DNA from: an uncultured Candidatus Saccharibacteria bacterium
GTDB lineage: Bacteria > Patescibacteriota > Saccharimonadia > CAILAD01 > BJGX01
Length of the DNA stretch: 64,000 nt
Assembly: GCA_964552475.1 (NCBI GenBank)
Contig: CAZKFZ010000005.1
Location: 6,224-70,223, forward strand
Direction: 5' to 3'
Part shown: positions 28,665 to 53,739 of the stretch, in pieces
Position numbering within the stretch: position 1 is the stretch's first letter
How the letters are laid out: each line of letters begins with the position of its first letter
Position numbers and translations under genes: made by a program
The notes under the pieces: generated by a model
The model's database searches: none
Told to the model about the DNA's origin: nothing
Seen by the model: the letters and a program-made list of their open reading frames with translations, nothing else

Positions 28665-29554
28665 GACAGTTTAGTTAAAATATTTTTTAACTCAGTAGGT
28701 AGGCTAGCCCTAAAAACTTTTAGAGTTTTTGAGGGTAGTTCTAAACTTATTGAGCTAGCATGCAAAAATTGTCGAGTAAATAGACTATCAACTTTTTTGT
28801 TTCCGTATTGTTTGTCGCCTGCAACCGGGTGCCCAATATGTGCAAATTGTACCCTAATTTGGTGTGTACGACCAGTCAAGATTGAAACATCTAGTAAGCT
28901 ATAGCCGTTATATTCCTTAATAAGTTGGTACTCACTTATTGCAGACTTTCCAGAGCTGTGTATGCTCATCTTCTGAGGATTTTTTATACCACGTTTGATT
29001 GGTAACTCAAGTCTAGCACTATCACTATTGGGTCTCCCTACTACTAAAGCTGTATAATGTTTTTTAACTCTTCGCTGTTTAAAAGCTGACAATAAAAATT
29101 CCTTGGCGTGATCGTTTCTTGCCAAAATCATTACTCCAGAAGTGTCTTTATCTAAACGATGTACAATGCCTGGTCTTACTGGGTCATTGTCGTTAATTAA
29201 GTCTTTAAATGCTCCTGCAACTGATGACTGTGGATTATTTGCTGTAGTATAAACTACTAATCCAGCAGGCTTGTTTATAACTAACACATCTTCGTCTTTG
29301 TAAATAATTTTTGGCACTACATCGGGACTAATAAGTAAGCTTAGGGCGTTTATAGTTGGAAGTTCACCATATATTAAAGAGCCATTTTTTAATTTTTCCG
29401 ATGCCTTTACTACCCTTTCATCTACCTTTACGCTACCCGATTGTATTTGTTCTCTCCATCTAGCACGACTAAACTTAGGGTAAACTTCAGCCAATACAAA
29501 ATCTACTCGCTTACCCTCCTGCGCTTCTTGAGCAGTAAAAGAAAAATTTTTCAT
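28661..29554 (-). CDS. RluA-family (RluD-like) 23S rRNA pseudouridine synthase with N-terminal S4 domain
   Basis: Catalytic motif HRLDKDTSGVMILAR and an S4-like N-terminus; 297 aa. Confidence 0.85.
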   Translation of the reverse strand: MKNFSFTAQEAQEGKRVDFVLAEVYPKFSRARWREQIQSGSVKVDERVVKASEKLKNGSLIYGELPTINALSLLISPDVVPKIIYKDEDVLVINKPAGLVVYTTANNPQSSVAGAFKDLINDNDPVRPGIVHRLDKDTSGVMILARNDHAKEFLLSAFKQRRVKKHYTALVVGRPNSDSARLELPIKRGIKNPQKMSIHSSGKSAISEYQLIKEYNGYSLLDVSILTGRTHQIRVQFAHIGHPVAGDKQYGNKKVDSLFTRQFLHASSISLELPSKTLKVFRASLPTELKNILTKLS

Positions 29555-44985: not shown

Positions 44986-45369
44986 TTACTTAATTAAGTG
45001 AATTCCACCAATAATAGGTAGTGGGGTTTTCTTCTTACCTACAGCGTTAACTATACCTATAATAGCTAGTACAAGTACGCCTAGGTAAACGAGCCACATT
45101 AACATCGAGATAATGCTATACAGTCCAAAGCCACCGTATCCTACTGAAGCAATAAAGATCATACCAAGAACAAAATTGACTACCCATAGCACTATCTCTA
45201 ATGCAAAGAGGGTAAGACCTTGTTTGGCGTGGAACTGGGCAAATTCTGAATCTTTTGCTGCTAGTAGAGGTATTAGGCAGAGTATACCTAGGTATGATAG
45301 CACTCCCATTAATACGTCGTTGTCACCACTTGATTTGGTTTTAGTTGCTGGTTGCTTTTCTTCGGGCAT
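44986..45369 (-). CDS. DUF4870-like small membrane protein inserted between rpsJ and rplC
   Basis: LMGVLSYLGILCLIPLLAAKDSEFAQFHAKQGLTLF resembles the DUF4870 signature; 3 TM. Confidence 0.55.
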   Translation of the reverse strand: MPEEKQPATKTKSSGDNDVLMGVLSYLGILCLIPLLAAKDSEFAQFHAKQGLTLFALEIVLWVVNFVLGMIFIASVGYGGFGLYSIISMLMWLVYLGVLVLAIIGIVNAVGKKKTPLPIIGGIHLIK

Positions 45370-47179: not shown

Positions 47180-49300
47180 CTACCTCGTACTGGCTTCGCC
47201 AGCCTCACGAGCTGCACTATACTTGGTGCTCAACTCTTCAGCCACGTTGTGAGGCACCTCTGCGTAGTGGTCAAACTCCATAGCATAGCTAGCCCGTCCT
47301 TGGGTCATAGATCGCAAACTTGTGGCATAACCAAACATTTCAGCTAGTGGCACAAACGAGTGAATAATCTTTACACCTGAACGATCTTCCATATTATCTA
47401 CACGGCCACGCTTAGCGTTGATATCACCAATTACATCACCCATAAAATCTTCTGGGGTAGTAATTTCTACCTTCATGAGTGGCTCTAAGATTACTGGCTG
47501 GGCTTTTTTTACACCATCTTGCAAGGCCATAGACCCAGCGATTTTAAAAGCTAGCTCAGATGAGTCAACATCGTGATAACTACCGTCATAAAGTTTGGCG
47601 TGAATATCTACTACGGGGTATCCGGCAAGTACGCCGTTTTGCATGGCTTCAATTATGCCAGCCTCTACGGGCTTAATAAACTCCTTGGGAATGGCTCCAC
47701 CGACAATGGCGTTTTCAAACTCAAATATTTTAGTTTTGTCGTCTTCTTCGGTTTTGACTAGCGGACTAAGCTCTAGATAAACATGACCATACTGACCACG
47801 ACCACCAGATTGACGTACAAATTTACTTTCTACCTGGGCTGTGCCTTTAATGGTTTCGCGATAAGCTACTTGTGGACGACCAACGTTGGCCTCTACCTTA
47901 AACTCGCGCTTCATTCTATCAACAATAACCTCTAAGTGTAGCTCGCCCATCCCATCTATAATAGTCTGGCCCGAGTCTTCGTCGGTGTGAACACGAAATG
48001 TTGGGTCTTCTTCGGCCAAGCGGCTAAGCGCAATACTCATCTTCTCTTGGTCGGCTTTGGTTTTGGGTTCAATAGCAATACTAATAACTGGCTCTGGGAA
48101 GGTAATACTTTCTAAAACTACCGGCTTAGCCACATCGCTTAGGGTGTGCCCGGTAATAGTGGCTTTAAGGCCTACTGCGGCGGCAATTTCGCCAGCGTAT
48201 ACCTCATTTACTTCTTCGCGGTTATTGGCGTGCATACGCACTATACGGCCAATGCGTTCTTTTTCGCCAGTACTAGCATTTAACACATAGCTACCAGACT
48301 TAATTGTGCCCGAATATACTCTAAAGAAAGCTAGTTTACCCACAAATGGGTCGGTGGCTATCTTAAAAGCTAGAGCAGCAAATGGCGCGTCGTCGCTTAC
48401 CTCTAGCACTTTTTCTTCGCCAGTTTTATTATCGATCGCTAGAGGTGGCGTTACATCTAGAGGGCTAGGTAGATATTCGGTCACAATATCAAGTAGTTTT
48501 TCAACAATTACGCCTCGACCGTCACCACCAGATACTATAAAGAAGTCGCCCTTAAGTACACTTTTGCGTATGCAAGTTTTAATCTCTTCGTTGGTTAACT
48601 CGGTACCTTCAAGGTATTTTTCCATTATCGTGTCGTCAGACTCTACCGCAGCCTCTATAAGGTGTTGGCGGTAATTGGTGGCTTTTTCTACCATATCTTC
48701 AGGAATCTCAGACTCTACTAGCTCTTTGTCGGTGTAGTCTTTGTAGGTGTAGGCTTTCATAGCTATTAGATCTACTACGCCATTAATAGCTTGTTCATAA
48801 CCAATTGGTAAATGTATGGGGTAAGCTCGCTTGGTAAGGCGACCGTGAATACTCTCTAAGCTTTTGTAAAAATCGCCGCCGGTTTGGTTAATTTTATTTA
48901 TAAAACAAATGCGTGGAACGCCATATTTGTCGGCCTGACGCCAAACTGTTTCTGATTGTGGCTCTACACCCATTTTACCGTCAAAAACAGTTACAGCACC
49001 GTCAAGTACGCGAAGTGATCGCTCTACCTCTACGGTAAAGTCGATGTGACCAGGAGTATCGATTATATTAATGCGTTTTTTGTTCCAGAAACATGTAGTA
49101 GCCGCGCTAGTAATGGTAATGCCGCGTTCTTGCTCTTGCTCCATCCAGTCCATAGTGGCTTCACCTTGATGAACCTCGCCTATTTTGTGCACTTTACCGG
49201 TACGATAAAGAACTCCTTCAGTTACTGTTGTTTTACCAGCATCAATATGGGCAATAATACCAATATTACGGGTATCTTCTAAGCTATAGTCTCGTGCCAT
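47180..49300 (-). CDS. fusA: Elongation factor G
   Basis: [29 protein letters not shown]; 706 aa. Confidence 0.97.
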
Positions 49301-49478
49301 GGGATTTTAAATTGTCTCCTTTAAATGTTTACTAGAATAATTATTCCAAAATGAAAAAAGCGCCAGTTTTGGCTATTTCTGATTAATTGTAACAATTTGT
49401 CGACTTTTTTACAAGTTGAATATAATATAGCAAATTTTTTAACGATATTAATTTAAAAAAAACAAGTCGTTATGGCTA

Positions 49479-49507
49479 TTGACAGGTTAAAATGCTTATG
49501 CTATTGT
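49479..49507 (+). promoter_or_regulatory. Candidate promoter: -35 TTGACA (49479-84), 17-nt spacer, -10 TATTGT (49502-07), plus strand, reading into the structured RNA region
   Basis: Perfect -35 hexamer with exact 17-nt spacing. There is no ORF downstream for ~400 nt. Confidence 0.4.
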
Positions 49508-49644
49508 TAAATTGAACAGTGTCAACAACAAAAGAGACACAATAGCACCAAAAAAGTTCTGTACATAAATAATTCTCGACAGCACTTTTACTAATTGATA
49601 CAAACATTAAAATCAACACCAAAACATATTTAATGTTTGTGTCA

Positions 49645-49861
49645 TAACAATTGTGCTCTCAGGTGAGAGTTTTTTTATAATCTGGGTTCTTGTTGGTTAT
49701 TATGTGGCAACAGAGTGCAACGAGGGTTCTTAACACAGCCACTAAAGCAAAGATGAGAACCAGAATGCCGTGGACCGGAAGAAGCACTAACACAATGTGG
49801 TGTTTGCTTCTTCCGGCCTCGGCTAACCACATCTCTAAGGTACGCTTTAGAGATTTTTTTG
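49645..49861 (+). ncRNA. Candidate structured small RNA or cis-regulatory leader, GC-rich (~50%) in an AT-rich intergenic region. It contains a 12-bp perfect hairpin (49765-49806) and ends in a strong intrinsic terminator
   Basis: Hairpin 1 (ctctc aggt gagag plus T7) at 49645-49667 overlaps a TATAAT box. Hairpin 2 (ccggaagaagca ...18 nt... tgcttcttccgg) at 49765-49806 is a perfect 12-bp stem. A long-range pairing joins ctgggttct (49671-79) with agaaccag (49746-53). Hairpin 3 (atctctaagg tacg cctttagagat, 10-bp stem with a tetraloop) is followed by T7 at 49855-61. Its class is unknown. Confidence 0.45.
49831..49861 (+). terminator. Strong intrinsic terminator (10-bp stem, UACG loop, T7 run) closing the structured RNA, located 70 nt upstream of the first island gene
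   Basis: atctctaagg tacg ct ttagagat ttttttt, read directly from the sequence. Confidence 0.7.
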
Positions 49862-49932
49862 TACAAAATTAGTTTGACCCAATTCAAAGACTGTGTTAGT
49901 TTAAAACCTACTTCCAAAAGGAGTAGAACCTT

Positions 49933-50380
49933 GTTGAATCGCAAAAAAATACTTATCGGTATAGTTGCTGTCGTATTACTAGCGTTGCCATTTGGAATTC
50001 ATTGGTACGTTGGCTATGAAGCTCGTCATTTTGGTAGAGAAGCTGCTGATGAAGCGGTATCAAGAGCTAATCGCGCCAACTTTGCAGAGAACGAATGGAA
50101 TAAGCTTCTAAGGCTGGCCAGGGATGAAGATTTTAGAACTCTTATTGAGCAACAACTTGCCGAACAGTGTATAGATGCTAACTACATTGTTAGCCTTATG
50201 ATTCAAAGTCAATATGGCGAAACAGATAGTGAGCTTGCTGACATACTAACAGAATTACTACCGGAGCCTGCTTCACCAGAAGAATGTGCTGCCTCTAGTG
50301 GGGATAATCAAGAAGCTCAACCAGATAGTAGCGAGCAAGACACGACCACTACAACTGTCGCCATCTTGCCAGATGACTAA
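49933..50380 (+). CDS. Small membrane-anchored protein with an acidic, low-complexity C-terminus (island gene 1)
   Basis: AAGGAG RBS 7 nt before TTG 49933. One N-terminal TM (ILIGIVAVVLLALPFGIHWYV). The ORF track begins at 49859, inside the terminator, which is unlikely to be the true start. Confidence 0.5.
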
Positions 50381-50386
50381 CCTTAG

Positions 50387-50414
50387 CCCGATCAATCAAG
50401 ATCGGGTTTTTATT
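50387..50414 (+). terminator. Intrinsic terminator after island gene 1
   Basis: cccgatc aatcaa gatcggg followed by tttttatt. Confidence 0.6.
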
Positions 50415-50419
50415 GCTAA

Positions 50420-50839
50420 TTGACTCACTTTGTGCTATTATCGTCGCATTATTGTACCCTGTCAGAAAGTGAGTACTTGTTACACCCAGAGCCAGAAAAA
50501 AAACCTGAAGTTGCAAACAGACCCATATCGCCTAAAGATATCGAATTGTTCCAGCTTGAGTTAAGGTCTGAACAGCTGCTGGCAGAAAGTAAAAATTTGT
50601 TTCAAGATAATTTGGATTCTTTTAAAAGAGTAGGTTATGGTATATTAGCCAATTGGGTGCTTTTTTGTGTAGTCTTTGGTGTTGTCTTGCAAGATATTGG
50701 AGTGATTATTTTTATTACAGCACTGTGTATTGCTATTTATCTCATTATGCATATCGATCATTATCATTTCTATAAACATATCGCCAAGCCAGTTCTTGAT
50801 CTACCAAGCATCTTTGAACTACCTCATGAAAAATCATGA
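50420..50839 (+). CDS. Small membrane protein with a 2-TM C-terminus (island gene 2); start uncertain, possibly TTG near 50468
   Basis: ORF with hydrophobic segments LANWVLFCVVFGVVL and VIIFITALCIAIYLIM. A possible promoter is TTGCTA-17-TATTAT at 50413-50441. Confidence 0.4.
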   Translation: MTHFVLLSSHYCTLSESEYLLHPEPEKKPEVANRPISPKDIELFQLELRSEQLLAESKNLFQDNLDSFKRVGYGILANWVLFCVVFGVVLQDIGVIIFITALCIAIYLIMHIDHYHFYKHIAKPVLDLPSIFELPHEKS

Positions 50840-50844
50840 GGTTT

Positions 50845-51528
50845 TTACTTATATACAAGCTCTACAAAAAACCGTTCTTTTGAGCTCTCTACTAAGTTTG
50901 CTAGCTCAGGCATGCTAGCCATAAAGGGGCTATGGTTAAATTCTTCTCGCCAAGCCCAACTAGCTATACCCGGCTTTTGGGTTTTCTTGATTTCACCGTA
51001 GGGGTTTTTACCATAAAACAAATGAAACATTATCTGACTAACCAGCTCGGTGTTTTCATAGATAGTTATATAACCATCACCACGATGCGAAAGCTCGCAC
51101 TGTAGTCCAGTTTTTTCTTTTAGTTCTCGGTGAGCAGCCTGAGATACCGTTTCGCCCATATGTAGTTTGCCATACACAAACCCAACTTGCTCTATCAAGG
51201 GCTGGCGTTTACGTCTGTAGACTAGCCATTGTCCTTTTTCGTTTTGACAGGTTATAAGAGTCACTATACTTGGTTGTTTACGTGGAGTGTAGTCTTGCAG
51301 ACTCAAGCTATCAGCAAAAACCTTGCCTTCTGGGCTAAGTAAGTACAGTCCGTCTTCATTTTTTACCACCAAACCATCCTTGATAAGCGCATTTAGATGA
51401 TACATGAAGTGATTGCCTTCTACGTCCGAGGGTTTGAGTTTACTGTAACGCAAATAAGGATTGGTAATGAGTTTTGATAGAATGTCTTTTTGGATTCTAT
51501 GAGGCATATACATATGATATATCCACAT
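50845..51528 (-). CDS. Winged-HTH-like N-terminal domain fused to a Nudix hydrolase domain (island gene 3); candidate nucleotide-sensing regulator or enzyme
   Basis: Nudix box GKLHMGETVSQAAHRELKEKTGL (Gx5Ex7REUxEKxGU, one E-to-K substitution). The N-terminal ~75 aa have a wHTH-like pattern (ILSKLITNPYLRYSKLKP...GNHFMYHLNALIKDGLV). Confidence 0.6.
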   Translation of the reverse strand: MWIYHMYMPHRIQKDILSKLITNPYLRYSKLKPSDVEGNHFMYHLNALIKDGLVVKNEDGLYLLSPEGKVFADSLSLQDYTPRKQPSIVTLITCQNEKGQWLVYRRKRQPLIEQVGFVYGKLHMGETVSQAAHRELKEKTGLQCELSHRGDGYITIYENTELVSQIMFHLFYGKNPYGEIKKTQKPGIASWAWREEFNHSPFMASMPELANLVESSKERFFVELVYK

Positions 51529-51704
51529 ACTTCTTTAGTCAATAAACATATTGTATATTCAAATTTGAGTCATTTCAAATAGTAACCATTTATTTTTAGT
51601 TAATCTTTTTGTGTATAAGTACTGTTATTTATTATATTATTGCCAATTTAGAATTAAAATGATATTATAGCTTTCAGTTTTGCACCTACTGTTAGGAGAA
51701 AAGA

Positions 51705-52733
51705 TTGAAAGAGTCACAGTATTATCGTGGCTACAGCCACTTTAAAAATTGTGTATCAGCTTGGTTTGCAGTTCTATTCTTTGTCGGACTAGCTGTTGTA
51801 TCGGGACTTATCTGGAACAACAACAGACTCTGGGGTGATGAGAACAAAGACATTCGAATTGCACAAGCTAATAATGATTTTTGGGCGATGGTTTCGGGGC
51901 AGTTGTCAATTCAAGATAATGTCTATGGGAACTTTGCGAGTGATCTGTATGAATTCACTCAAAAAGACGCTCCAAGCGATGGATTAGTAGAAGTAACTAC
52001 CGACACCATCAATACTCAACAAACCACTCCGGGTTACAACCCTTTGGTGGTAGATTCGCTAGATGAGTTTGTTGCACCGATCGATTTGTATGACGGGTTT
52101 GAAGAAGCAACTGGCATTAATGCCTTTGCCGGAGTGGATGTTTCTGAAGACTCCATAAGAGACGCTGGAAGACTAAAGAGTAGCTTTGTCGACAATGTTA
52201 ATCAGGTAGTCTCTGGAGATAGTACTGGGCTGTTAGAGCAATCAACTAGCCACAAATACACATATTACAGCTGGAATATCTGGCGAGAGTTAGCTGGACT
52301 ATACCTTTTAGTGGGCGTAATAGCTCTACTGCTAGGTGGGGTGCACTTTAGGTGCGATGACTACTACTGTAATAAACCACACTACACTATGTATGGGTGG
52401 TCAAAACCAGCTCATCATACGGGTGCGAAGATCTGGCTAGCAATTCTTTGCCCCATAATGTTTGTACTGTGGCTAGCACTACGGCTGGTTAGTTGGCCGT
52501 TTAGGGTGTTGATAAACTGGATCAACAATCAATACGATATCATTCAAGGTAGAGTTAAAATTAAGAAACAGGGTGATAGCCTTCAAATTTCTACAACAAA
52601 GTTGATTGACGACTTAAGCCTGTACCGAGACAATATAGTTCAGCTTCAACCTCAAAGTGAACAAGAAATTTATCTCGAAGAGATTAACAGACTTATTGAG
52701 ACACTAAAAGCCAACCAACCTCAATCTCTATAA
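51705..52733 (+). CDS. 3-TM membrane protein with a ~190-aa extracytoplasmic domain and a C-terminal coiled coil (island gene 4), GC ~45%
   Basis: AGGAGA RBS 5 nt before TTG 51705; hydrophobic segments at residues ~20-38, ~200-220 and ~250-270. I recognise no motif. Confidence 0.55.
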   Translation: MKESQYYRGYSHFKNCVSAWFAVLFFVGLAVVSGLIWNNNRLWGDENKDIRIAQANNDFWAMVSGQLSIQDNVYGNFASDLYEFTQKDAPSDGLVEVTTDTINTQQTTPGYNPLVVDSLDEFVAPIDLYDGFEEATGINAFAGVDVSEDSIRDAGRLKSSFVDNVNQVVSGDSTGLLEQSTSHKYTYYSWNIWRELAGLYLLVGVIALLLGGVHFRCDDYYCNKPHYTMYGWSKPAHHTGAKIWLAILCPIMFVLWLALRLVSWPFRVLINWINNQYDIIQGRVKIKKQGDSLQISTTKLIDDLSLYRDNIVQLQPQSEQEIYLEEINRLIETLKANQPQSL

Positions 52734-52764
52734 AATGCATTGTAAGCAAAAACCCCGATTAATA

Positions 52765-52793
52765 CTCGGGGTTTTTAACTATCAAAAAACCAC
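52765..52793. terminator. Bidirectional intrinsic terminator
   Basis: aaaaa ccccg attaatact cgggg ttttt. Confidence 0.7.
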
Positions 52794-52800
52794 CGATACT

Positions 52801-52828
52801 GGTGGTTTTTTGATAGTTTATACAGAAT
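52801..52828. terminator. Second bidirectional intrinsic terminator, 3 nt after the rpsG stop
   Basis: aaaaaa ccacc gatact ggtgg tttttt. Confidence 0.7.
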
Positions 52829-52830
52829 GT

Positions 52831-53307
52831 TTAATATCTGGCAAAGTGGGCAAAGGCTTTATTGGCTTCAGCCATCTGGTGAGCATCTTGACGCTTCTTA
52901 ATAGCATCACCTTCGTTGTTGTAGGCATTAATTAGCTCGTTGGCCAATCGCTTATCGAAGCTTTTACCTGATTTATTGCGGGCACTGTCTAGTATCCATA
53001 TGAGTGCATAGTGAGTCTTACGATCACCCTTCACTTCCATGGGCACCTGGTAGTTAGCACCACCAATTCTTTTACTTTTTACCATAACATTAGGACTAAC
53101 GTTTTTTACCGCCGTTTCTAGTACCTCGGCTGGTTCTACCTTGGTTTTTACAGCTGCTTGTTCAATGGCCGAATACACCAATCGTTCTGCGATTTGCTTC
53201 TTACCGTGGTTCATTACCTTGTTAATGGTCTTCGAAACCAAAACACTTTTATAGACGCGGTCTGGTGGTATTACTCTTTTTAGTGATTTTGTAACTTTTC
53301 TTGGCAT
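52831..53307 (-). CDS. rpsG: 30S ribosomal protein S7
   Basis: [21 protein letters not shown]...[36 protein letters not shown]. Confidence 0.95.
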   Translation of the reverse strand: [158 protein letters not shown]

Positions 53308-53316
53308 AACAAACTC

Positions 53317-53739
53317 TTAAGCTTTCTTGGCGCCTTCGCGCTTTGTGCCGTATTTACTTCTACCCTGTTTACGATCTGAAACACCTGCGGTATCTAGTGC
53401 TCCACGCACCACATGATAACGCACACCAGGTAAGTCTTTCACTCTTCCACCACGAATAAGCACTACAGAGTGCTCTTGTAAATTGTGTCCTTCGCCACCA
53501 ATATAAGCAGTAACTTCCATACCGTTAGTAAGGCGCACACGGGCCACCTTACGAAGCGCTGAGTTTGGCTTTTTGGGCGTTTGAGTAAAAACCTTGGTGC
53601 ACACACCACGCTTTAAGGGTGAGTTTAGATTGCTTGAGCGTACTTTTAGAGCATTAAAACTACGAGCCAAAGCTGGTGCTTTGTTCTTTTTGCCTTTGCT
53701 AGCTCTAGGCTTTCTAATTAGTTGATTTATAGTCGGCAT
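53317..53739 (-). CDS. rpsL: 30S ribosomal protein S12
   Basis: [12 protein letters not shown]...[19 protein letters not shown]... Confidence 0.95.

Follow-up and report, generated by a model that had tools for sequence, protein, structure and literature searches.

Described systems and the locus under study

The described systems closest to the locus presented here are, for its layout, the flexible genomic islets or hotspots and, for its conserved gene, the regulators NrtR and NadR and the MutT/MTH1 hydrolases. The locus is the space between rpsG and fusA in a 64,000-nucleotide stretch of DNA (hereafter the window) from an uncultured Candidatus Saccharibacteria bacterium (GenBank assembly GCA_964552475.1, contig CAZKFZ010000005.1, positions 6,224 to 70,223 of the forward strand), and the conserved gene encodes a protein with a winged helix-turn-helix and a Nudix domain (wHTH-Nudix). 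The genes rpsL, rpsG, fusA and tuf are normally contiguous; in the window, rpsG and fusA stand 3,530 bp apart. We consider it fairly probable that this gap is an old, persistent variable spacer of one Saccharibacteria clade, anchored by the wHTH-Nudix regulator, and not a recent insertion. As in flexible islets, the core flanks are fixed, cargo is replaced between close relatives, orphan genes are many and small indels occur (here the one carrying gene B), but the site differs from them in lying inside a normally contiguous rpsL-rpsG-fusA-tuf cluster and in keeping one resident gene over long evolutionary distances, without mobility genes or repeats.

NrtR proteins consist of an N-terminal Nudix domain followed by a characteristic C-terminal wHTH; their effector is ADP-ribose (PMC2330246), and a perturbed Nudix signature correlates in them with loss of catalysis (PMC2330246). 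In the window protein the order is reversed, the wHTH being N-terminal, and the C-terminal domain family of NrtR is not detected in it by Pfam; NrtR moreover regulates nicotinamide adenine dinucleotide (NAD) metabolism, whereas no NAD biosynthesis genes lie at this locus of the window. What the wHTH-Nudix family does have in common with NrtR is a conserved palindrome in its own promoter region across orthologs, and the likeness is one of function and not of family. Enterobacterial NadR (PMC2330246) shares with the window protein the fusion of a helix-turn-helix, placed at the N terminus, to a nucleotide-handling domain and a palindromic operator, but the effector and enzyme domains are unrelated (nicotinamide mononucleotide adenylyltransferase and kinase against Nudix) and no homology was detected between the two. 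The 8-oxo-(d)GTP diphosphatases of the MutT/MTH1 type, finally, are single-domain proteins with a full REUXEE motif, whereas the family studied here has an additional N-terminal wHTH and an invariant REL.EK.

A wHTH-Nudix gene kept between rpsG and fusA

The gap is delimited, and its conserved gene placed, as follows (positions in the window).

53317-53739, minus strand: rpsL (open reading frame (ORF) list and Pfam)
52831-53307, minus strand: rpsG, encoding ribosomal protein S7 and bordering the gap on its upstream side (Pfam Ribosomal_S7, E = 2e-53)
50845-51528, minus strand: wHTH-Nudix, an ORF of 227 amino acids (aa), the conserved anchor of the locus (Pfam PF00293)
47180-49300, minus strand: fusA, encoding EF-G, the downstream border of the gap (Pfam GTP_EFTU, EFG_III, EFG_IV and EFG_C)

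The ORF list and Pfam bear out the layout given in a preliminary description of this DNA, made from the sequence alone, according to which rpsG ends at 52831, fusA starts at 49300 and four genes lie between them; these are named here A (A149), B, wHTH-Nudix and D342. That description placed the Nudix gene on the opposite strand, which is true relative to the other three genes of the gap, whereas the gene is co-directional with rpsL-rpsG-fusA (tuf and rpsJ are on the minus strand as well), and it is A, B and D342 that are antisense to them. The same description held all four genes to be unannotatable: three of the proteins (D342, A149 and B) are indeed without a known family, but the Nudix gene is not, the Nudix domain being the sole result of searching all four proteins against Pfam, NCBIfam, PADLOC and PHROGs.

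The S7 protein of the window is 95-98% identical to that of Saccharibacteria metagenome-assembled genomes (MAGs), and the S7 scan matched only Saccharibacteria/Patescibacteria MAGs. The preliminary description had proposed that the junction be compared in related genomes, where the same four genes with host-like composition would refute its reading; this turned out to be half the case. Across these genomes, wHTH-Nudix is found between rpsG and fusA, in the same orientation as these, in about 20 related Saccharibacteria loci (designated here by L numbers), and the other three genes are not shared. Identity of the Nudix protein among these gap-resident orthologs is 91% for L081, the sister species, and 80% for L086, falls to 58-78% in L001, L003-L008, L093, L094, L096 and L176, and is still 45-55% in L012, L013, L016, L090, L091, L116 and L144. 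The gene is present in most relatives whose S7 identity is at least 68%, being absent from L002, L009-L011 and L014 (in the last of which the gap holds other genes), and no copy was found within 10 kb of rpsG in Saccharibacteria whose S7 identity is 61% or lower; the cargo genes have a patchy distribution. Because about 20 relatives, with protein identities down to 45-55%, share its place and orientation, the core gene reads as old and lineage-typical content, around which the cargo turns over.

Among the neighbours of wHTH-Nudix, 85 of 115 clusters are singletons, and the upstream neighbour is divergently transcribed in 74 of 89 cases; nowhere else do the four genes of the window travel together. 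Only two partners recur. One is an AAA_28 P-loop protein resembling the NadR kinase, divergent in nine loci, for which NCBIfam gave no specific name; its recurrence hints at a link with nucleotide or NAD salvage. As the most recurrent neighbour, this AAA_28 protein (NadR ribosylnicotinamide-kinase-like) was seen in L006, L007, L008, L093, L096, L120, L138, L147, L155 and L176, usually in divergent orientation. The other partner is an ABC-F ATPase of ribosomal-protection-like type, directly downstream in deeper-branching genomes with the str context. It is co-directional with wHTH-Nudix in L012, L013, L015, L016, L090, L117 and L144, stands in str-context genomes between wHTH-Nudix and fusA, and is missing here; the 64 kb of the window contain neither an ABC-F or AAA_28 gene nor a paralog of any gene of the gap. 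A gene pair is also shared by the gaps of two distant relatives (L007:11481-12286(-) and L016:10886-11766(-)) and encodes a protein of about 87 aa and one of 181-207 aa weakly similar to the core of class II aminoacyl-tRNA synthetases (PheS-like, E about 1e-4).

Interrupted ribosomal clusters in Saccharibacteria

The preliminary description counted this neighbourhood among the most conserved known, which is not so in this phylum. Measuring intergenic gaps in 80 species representatives, we found a median rpsG-fusA gap of 359 bp, with more than 500 bp in 26 of 66, more than 1.5 kb in 13 of 66 and a maximum of 6.9 kb; the fusA-tuf gap exceeds 500 bp in 27 of 51 and the rpsJ-rplC gap in 24 of 35. 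Interrupted str and S10 clusters are common and normal in the Saccharibacteria. A search of the literature for Saccharibacteria together with the str operon, and for Saccharibacteria together with a Nudix regulator, found nothing.

In the window the S10 cluster is interrupted too, by a small membrane gene of DUF4870/MamF_MmsF type between rpsJ and rplC (44986-45369, minus strand), which is kept at that place in L002-L005, L010, L011, L014 and L081 with 39-99% identity.

Composition, borders and integrity of the gap

The preliminary description read the gap as an inserted foreign accessory island, and a recent acquisition of this kind, in which a foreign sensor, defence or host-interaction cassette would have been integrated as a unit into the str operon, has some points on its side: the gap is empty of genes in L002 and L009-L011, which are fairly close relatives, all but one of the four proteins are orphans, and one component, the B segment of about 435 bp, is truly recent and flanked by an 8-bp repeat. 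The composition speaks against it. An excess of guanine plus cytosine (GC) had been reported for the island genes (43-50%, against about 38% for the flanks), but the values are 35.8-43.0% for these genes, 23-39% for the intergenic parts and 38.2% for the whole island, as compared with 39.2% for the window and 41.9%, 45.4% and 44.6% for rpsG, rpsL and fusA (41.9-45.4% over the flanks), so that there is no excess. GC at third codon positions (GC3) is 30-40% both in the island and in the flanking genes. The composition is thus host-like and does not deviate in the manner of a horizontally acquired island.

Neither were the usual traces of integration seen. There is no integrase or recombinase among the four ORFs (Pfam, NCBIfam), no tRNA target near the gap (the nearest tRNA is more than 20 kb away) and no att-like direct repeat at its borders; short repeats between 49300-49700 and 52735-52830, which the preliminary description suggested looking for, were absent, and the repeat scan returned only short matches at chance level. 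With the four proteins, PADLOC-DB gave only a generic Nudix-domain match (PDC-S07, E = 3.5e-7) besides chance-level ones, PHROGs gave nothing beyond generic Nudix, and a scan of viral contigs, made with B alone, found no relative. Together with the synteny of the core gene in relatives down to 45-55% identity and with the finding that the four genes occur together nowhere else, this largely refutes recent acquisition as a unit, which we regard as very improbable.

That the source is a metagenome-assembled genome could suggest a chimeric join by which assembly or binning put unrelated sequence between rpsG and fusA, and the preliminary description mentioned an assembly join as a possibility. 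However, positions 49487-53175 are matched at 99.9-100% by three independent assemblies from other sequencing runs, and the sister species L081 is collinear across both junctions of the gap; because of these two results an assembly join is excluded, and we see practically no chance of an artefact.

The wHTH-Nudix protein

The Pfam match of the anchor gene to PF00293 (E = 2e-11, over the gathering score) places its product in the Nudix superfamily. M6 or M8 (position 51513 or 51507) is probably the conserved start. The predicted structure is a confident model of a wHTH and a Nudix domain, the latter with the alpha/beta/alpha fold and with more resemblance to MutT/MTH1 than to ADP-ribose pyrophosphatases. 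We collected 137 homologs of about 220 aa, which are annotated at most as NUDIX-domain proteins. Between the window and L081 the protein is 91% identical, with a ratio of nonsynonymous to synonymous substitution rates (dN/dS) of 0.057.

In an alignment of 38 members, no stretch is more invariant than the putative recognition helix, K-P-x3-E-G/S-N-x-F-M-Y-H-L. The family's Nudix box invariably reads GK.H.GE-x7-REL.EK.G, the second Glu of REUXEE being replaced by Lys in 38 of 38, so that the complete canonical box GX5EX7REUXEEXGU is not present in the family. In the window the box is GKLHMGE-TVSQAAH-RELKEKTGL, with the remaining positions kept.

A candidate operator in the divergent control region

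Between wHTH-Nudix and its divergent neighbour D342 lies the following region.

51529-51704, no strand assigned: divergent control region of Nudix and D342, AT-rich, about 23% GC (promoter scan, motif match)

The promoter scan gave in this region a site for Nudix on the minus strand (51542>51514, TTGACT-17-TATCAT) and one for D342 on the plus strand (51640-51668, TTGCCA-17-TATTAT). An operator-like site, ATGACTCAAA, is found at 51564-51573, a second and degenerate one, TTGACTAAA, overlaps the -35 element of the Nudix promoter, and a near-match, TTGACTCAC, overlaps the promoter of B at about 50419-50427. Across the family, 77 of 88 non-redundant loci have an exact TGACTCA or TGAGTCA (TGASTCA) no more than 200 bp upstream of the start, as compared with 4% of background windows of the same size. 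In the aligned sites, both flanks of this core are conserved alike, giving TTTGAsTCAAA and, further out, an A at -11 and a T at +11, and two palindromes placed 31 bp or 15 bp apart are common upstream of family genes.

Regulator or enzyme, and the proposed working of the locus

The terminators, the fold, the enrichment of the motif, gene content and synteny, turnover and purifying selection are shown by the data. From the sequence data and by analogy with NrtR we infer that wHTH-Nudix is probably an autoregulated, nucleotide-sensing regulator, and the inference covers its DNA binding, autoregulation and ligand sensing as well as any link to the expression of translation factors. The fixed element of the locus is this gene of about 220 aa, with its N-terminal winged helix and C-terminal MutT/MTH1-like Nudix domain, transcribed in the direction of rpsL-rpsG and fusA-tuf. 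Its product would act as a dimeric transcription factor binding TTTGAsTCAAA in its own promoter region and, when bound, would control itself and the divergent neighbour, here D342. The Nudix domain, in which Lys invariantly replaces the second Glu of REUXEE, may serve mainly as a sensor of a nucleotide ligand, as in NrtR, and not as an efficient hydrolase. Around the anchor, short lineage-specific genes for membrane or secreted proteins, mostly on the opposite strand, are quickly gained, lost and replaced, the cargo in this window being D342, B, A149 and a small structured RNA. The str cluster is physically divided at this gap and, because variable genes, terminators and the structured RNA occupy it, would be transcribed as separate units, rpsL-rpsG ending at two bidirectional terminators and fusA starting from a conserved promoter and leader of its own.

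Conversely, wHTH-Nudix might be primarily an enzyme, either a pool sanitiser of MutT/MTH1 type or a hydrolase of a nucleotide derivative, in which the winged helix would serve for dimerisation or targeting and TTGAsTCAA would be the strong -35 element of a leaderless or short-leader promoter. We consider this possible but unlikely. Conservation of the motif is symmetric and reaches beyond a -35 hexamer, to the A/T at +/-11; the motif often occurs twice, at helical-repeat spacing; no more than 18 of 77 sites have a -10-like hexamer at promoter distance; within the protein, invariance is greatest at the helix-turn-helix residues; and the change from Glu to Lys is invariant in a family that has diverged to 35% identity.

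Some observations nevertheless weigh against an old spacer anchored by a regulator. The rpsG-fusA gap is bare, with 134-267 bp, in L002 and L009-L011, so that ancestral presence of the gap Nudix gene would require several losses, and many members of the wHTH-Nudix family on long contigs lie away from both rpsG and fusA. The Nudix box is changed at one position only and most catalytic residues are intact, by which hydrolase activity may be possible. The palindrome contains TTGACT and could be, or double as, a -35 element shared by the divergent promoters. In the rest of the 64-kb window the motif is not enriched (six exact 7-mers, about chance), with no wider regulon visible there; a search of the window for TGTGGATATAT likewise gave no enrichment.

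More speculatively, wHTH-Nudix could sense a nucleotide-derived signal (a product of NAD breakdown or salvage, damaged GTP or an alarmone-like dinucleotide) and couple it to the expression of translation factors and of variable envelope proteins, which would make it one of the few dedicated transcription factors in these reduced episymbiont genomes and the representative of an undescribed class of Nudix regulators with reversed architecture and an operator of its own, TTTGAsTCAAA. It would do so from its place in the rpsG-fusA spacer, often directly upstream of an ABC-F translation ATPase and of fusA-tuf; we hold the proposal as a whole to be quite improbable.

When Saccharibacteria genomes are annotated, an rpsG-fusA gap filled with genes should be taken neither for a foreign island nor for an assembly error. 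To our knowledge, the Saccharibacteria have very few recognisable regulators, and a wHTH-Nudix protein that is widely conserved and has a clear candidate operator offers a directly testable way into the sensing of nucleotide status by these episymbionts. For work on the birth and turnover of genes, the locus also provides a natural series of rapidly replaced orphan membrane proteins and a candidate small RNA. Current understanding is not overturned by these observations, the value of which is moderate.

Cargo genes of the window

The other genes of the gap and the hairpin that follows the first of them are the following.

49931/49934-50380, plus strand: A149, signal-anchored, with one transmembrane (TM) segment and an acidic C-terminal tail (TM prediction; ribosome-binding site (RBS) AAGGAG at 49918-49923)
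50385-50408, plus strand: A149 terminator hairpin (terminator scan; fold -14.1 kcal/mol, z -4.6)
50432-50839, plus strand: B, small orphan of 135 aa with two TM segments (GTG start at 50432; alternative start at 50420, giving 139 aa; ORF list, TM prediction)
51705-52733, plus strand: D342, orphan membrane protein with three TM segments (TM prediction; RBS AGGAG at 51694-51698)

That the island has its own RBSs, promoters and terminators, as the preliminary description noted, is confirmed by the RBSs of A149 and D342 and by the promoter-like sites. Comparison was made with L081, to which the window has a DNA identity of 87-88% and a synonymous divergence (dS) of about 0.5-1.2. S7 and EF-G are 98% identical to their L081 counterparts at the protein level (dN/dS 0.01-0.02, rpsG having 0.02), D342 is 79% identical (dN/dS 0.13) and A149 86% (dN/dS 0.06); because of these dN/dS values both D342 and A149 are taken, on sequence comparison, as real genes that evolve fast under purifying selection.

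D342 has TM segments at residues 13, 192 and 239, which give a predicted architecture in which an anchor at the N terminus is followed by an outer, acidic domain of about 150 aa, by two TM helices flanking a CDDYYC motif and by a C-terminal helical tail; its AlphaFold2 model is unusable (predicted local distance difference test score 61). It belongs to no Pfam, NCBIfam, PADLOC or PHROG family, and among 5.8e9 and 1.84e9 sequences its relatives are only the L081 ortholog (79%) and one 32%-identical protein, which was added by a full HMMER profile search and has an unrelated genomic context. A149 is genus-restricted, with only three homologs in the large-database search, at 88, 72 and 65% identity; weak relatives are found at the same place in L001 and L086. 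In L081, a hairpin of the A149 type also stands directly after the stop codon of the Nudix gene.

Gene B has its own promoter-like site and a terminator hairpin (50821-50842). The segment 50413-50839 is missing from L081, where it forms the sole break in collinearity with the window (an insertion of about 435 bp), and L176 and L177 likewise have no B between Nudix and A. Three independent samples of the window's species contain it, and tblastn found no relative in L001-L080, in viral contigs or in the rest of the window, no search of a large protein database having been made. A recent, species-specific gain is the best reading of the segment. An 8-bp direct repeat, TAAAAACC, flanks the insertion (50837-50848 and 50405-50416) and may be a terminator duplication rather than the footprint of a transposition; both copies of TAAAAACC form the 5' side of terminator hairpins. 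B-lacking lineages of L081 type and B-containing lineages of window type co-occur in SRR16481184 (L084, L173).

Such features could suggest that D342, B and A149 are surface proteins for episymbiosis, acting in host attachment or envelope remodelling, and that the site is a diversifying hotspot switched on by the Nudix regulator, which is compatible with an old spacer anchored by that regulator and would add a function for the cargo. All three proteins are membrane-anchored with domains predicted to face outward or to be acidic, the cargo evolves 5-10 times faster than the flanking genes while under purifying selection, it is replaced between species, and lineages with and without B occur in one sample. 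We nevertheless judge a surface role to be unlikely: Pfam and NCBIfam show no homology to adhesins, pili or secretion components, and the cargo that other genomes have is of cytoplasmic or metabolic kind (AAA_28 kinase-like protein, ABC-F, aldehyde dehydrogenase, sugar transferase), for which reason the site is not dedicated to surface proteins.

Terminators, fusA control region and a candidate small RNA

At its two ends the gap holds the following non-coding elements.

52748-52776 and 52777-52818, no strand assigned: two tandem bidirectional intrinsic terminators (perfect inverted repeats, folding)
49670-49864, plus strand: conserved structured non-coding element of about 195 nt (RNAalifold, covariance model)
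49301-49669, no strand assigned: fusA control region and upstream plus-strand unit (promoter and terminator scan)

The tandem bidirectional terminators at the end nearest rpsG and the structured RNA at the end nearest fusA had both been noted in the preliminary description, and both were recovered. Each terminator stem is preceded by an A-run on its 5' side and followed by a T-run on its 3' side, and the folding energy is -42 to -43 kcal/mol on either strand (z -9.2 and -9.9); of the two hairpins, the second is also kept in L081, L001 and L003-L007. The pair is predicted to end the convergent transcripts of rpsL-rpsG and D342. Sub-threshold Rfam matches at 52744-52818 were set aside as terminator look-alikes.

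On the other side, the promoter scan gave two promoter-like sites for fusA (49525>49498 and 49414>49386). The 230 nt nearest fusA are nearly identical to those of L081, while dS of the neighbouring genes is about 1, and 49320-49400 can still be recognised in L001 and L007; this near-invariance fits a dedicated fusA promoter and leader. The same region holds a possible second plus-strand unit at 49479-49676, comprising a promoter-like TTGACA-17-TATTGT (49479-49507), a hairpin with 16-nt arms found as an inverted repeat (49596-49644, plus strand) and a terminator-like hairpin, GCTCTC...GAGAGT followed by T7 (49655-49676, plus strand), which is conserved in L081 and L178. Descent of the fusA-proximal spacer (630 bp), by decay, from the 191-aa gene that L176 has there was examined with tblastn, which gave no signal.

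The whole spacer of 633 bp between fusA and A149 is 82-90% identical to that of L081 and strongly structured (z -7.7 on the plus strand). Within it, the element at 49670-49864 has a long-range stem, which is accompanied by a hairpin of about 25 bp (49766-49826) and by an intrinsic terminator (49831-49854) followed by T7. Its indels relative to L081 are not multiples of 3, and two short ORFs in this part (49659-49832, minus strand, and 49690-49872, plus strand) were rejected because their frames are broken by indels relative to L081. RNAalifold gave 53 pairs, eight of them with compensatory changes, from three sequences, and the covariance model R1, built from these three, added a fourth copy, an independent one that occupies the same position in L093 (162.7 bits). 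The copies (L081:7212-7409(-), L178:137-330(+) and L093:2993-3185(-)) always lie between A149, or Nudix, and fusA, antisense to fusA. Rfam gave no match in 49670-49864 at the gathering threshold or at E <= 1, and identification as signal recognition particle RNA, 6S RNA or RNase P RNA is without Rfam support. The data support a genus-restricted candidate small RNA, with modest covariation evidence from a small sample.

Other observations

ARAGORN called a tRNA with anticodon UUA ("tRNA-Stop") at 28688-28759 on the plus strand of the window; it lies inside ORFs on both strands, no Rfam tRNA model matches it, and the call is probably a false positive. The rpsG gene of the 1.09-Mb contig behind L090 comes out as two called fragments, of 117 and 57 aa (L090:4608-5085), likely through a frameshift or sequencing error in that long-read assembly.

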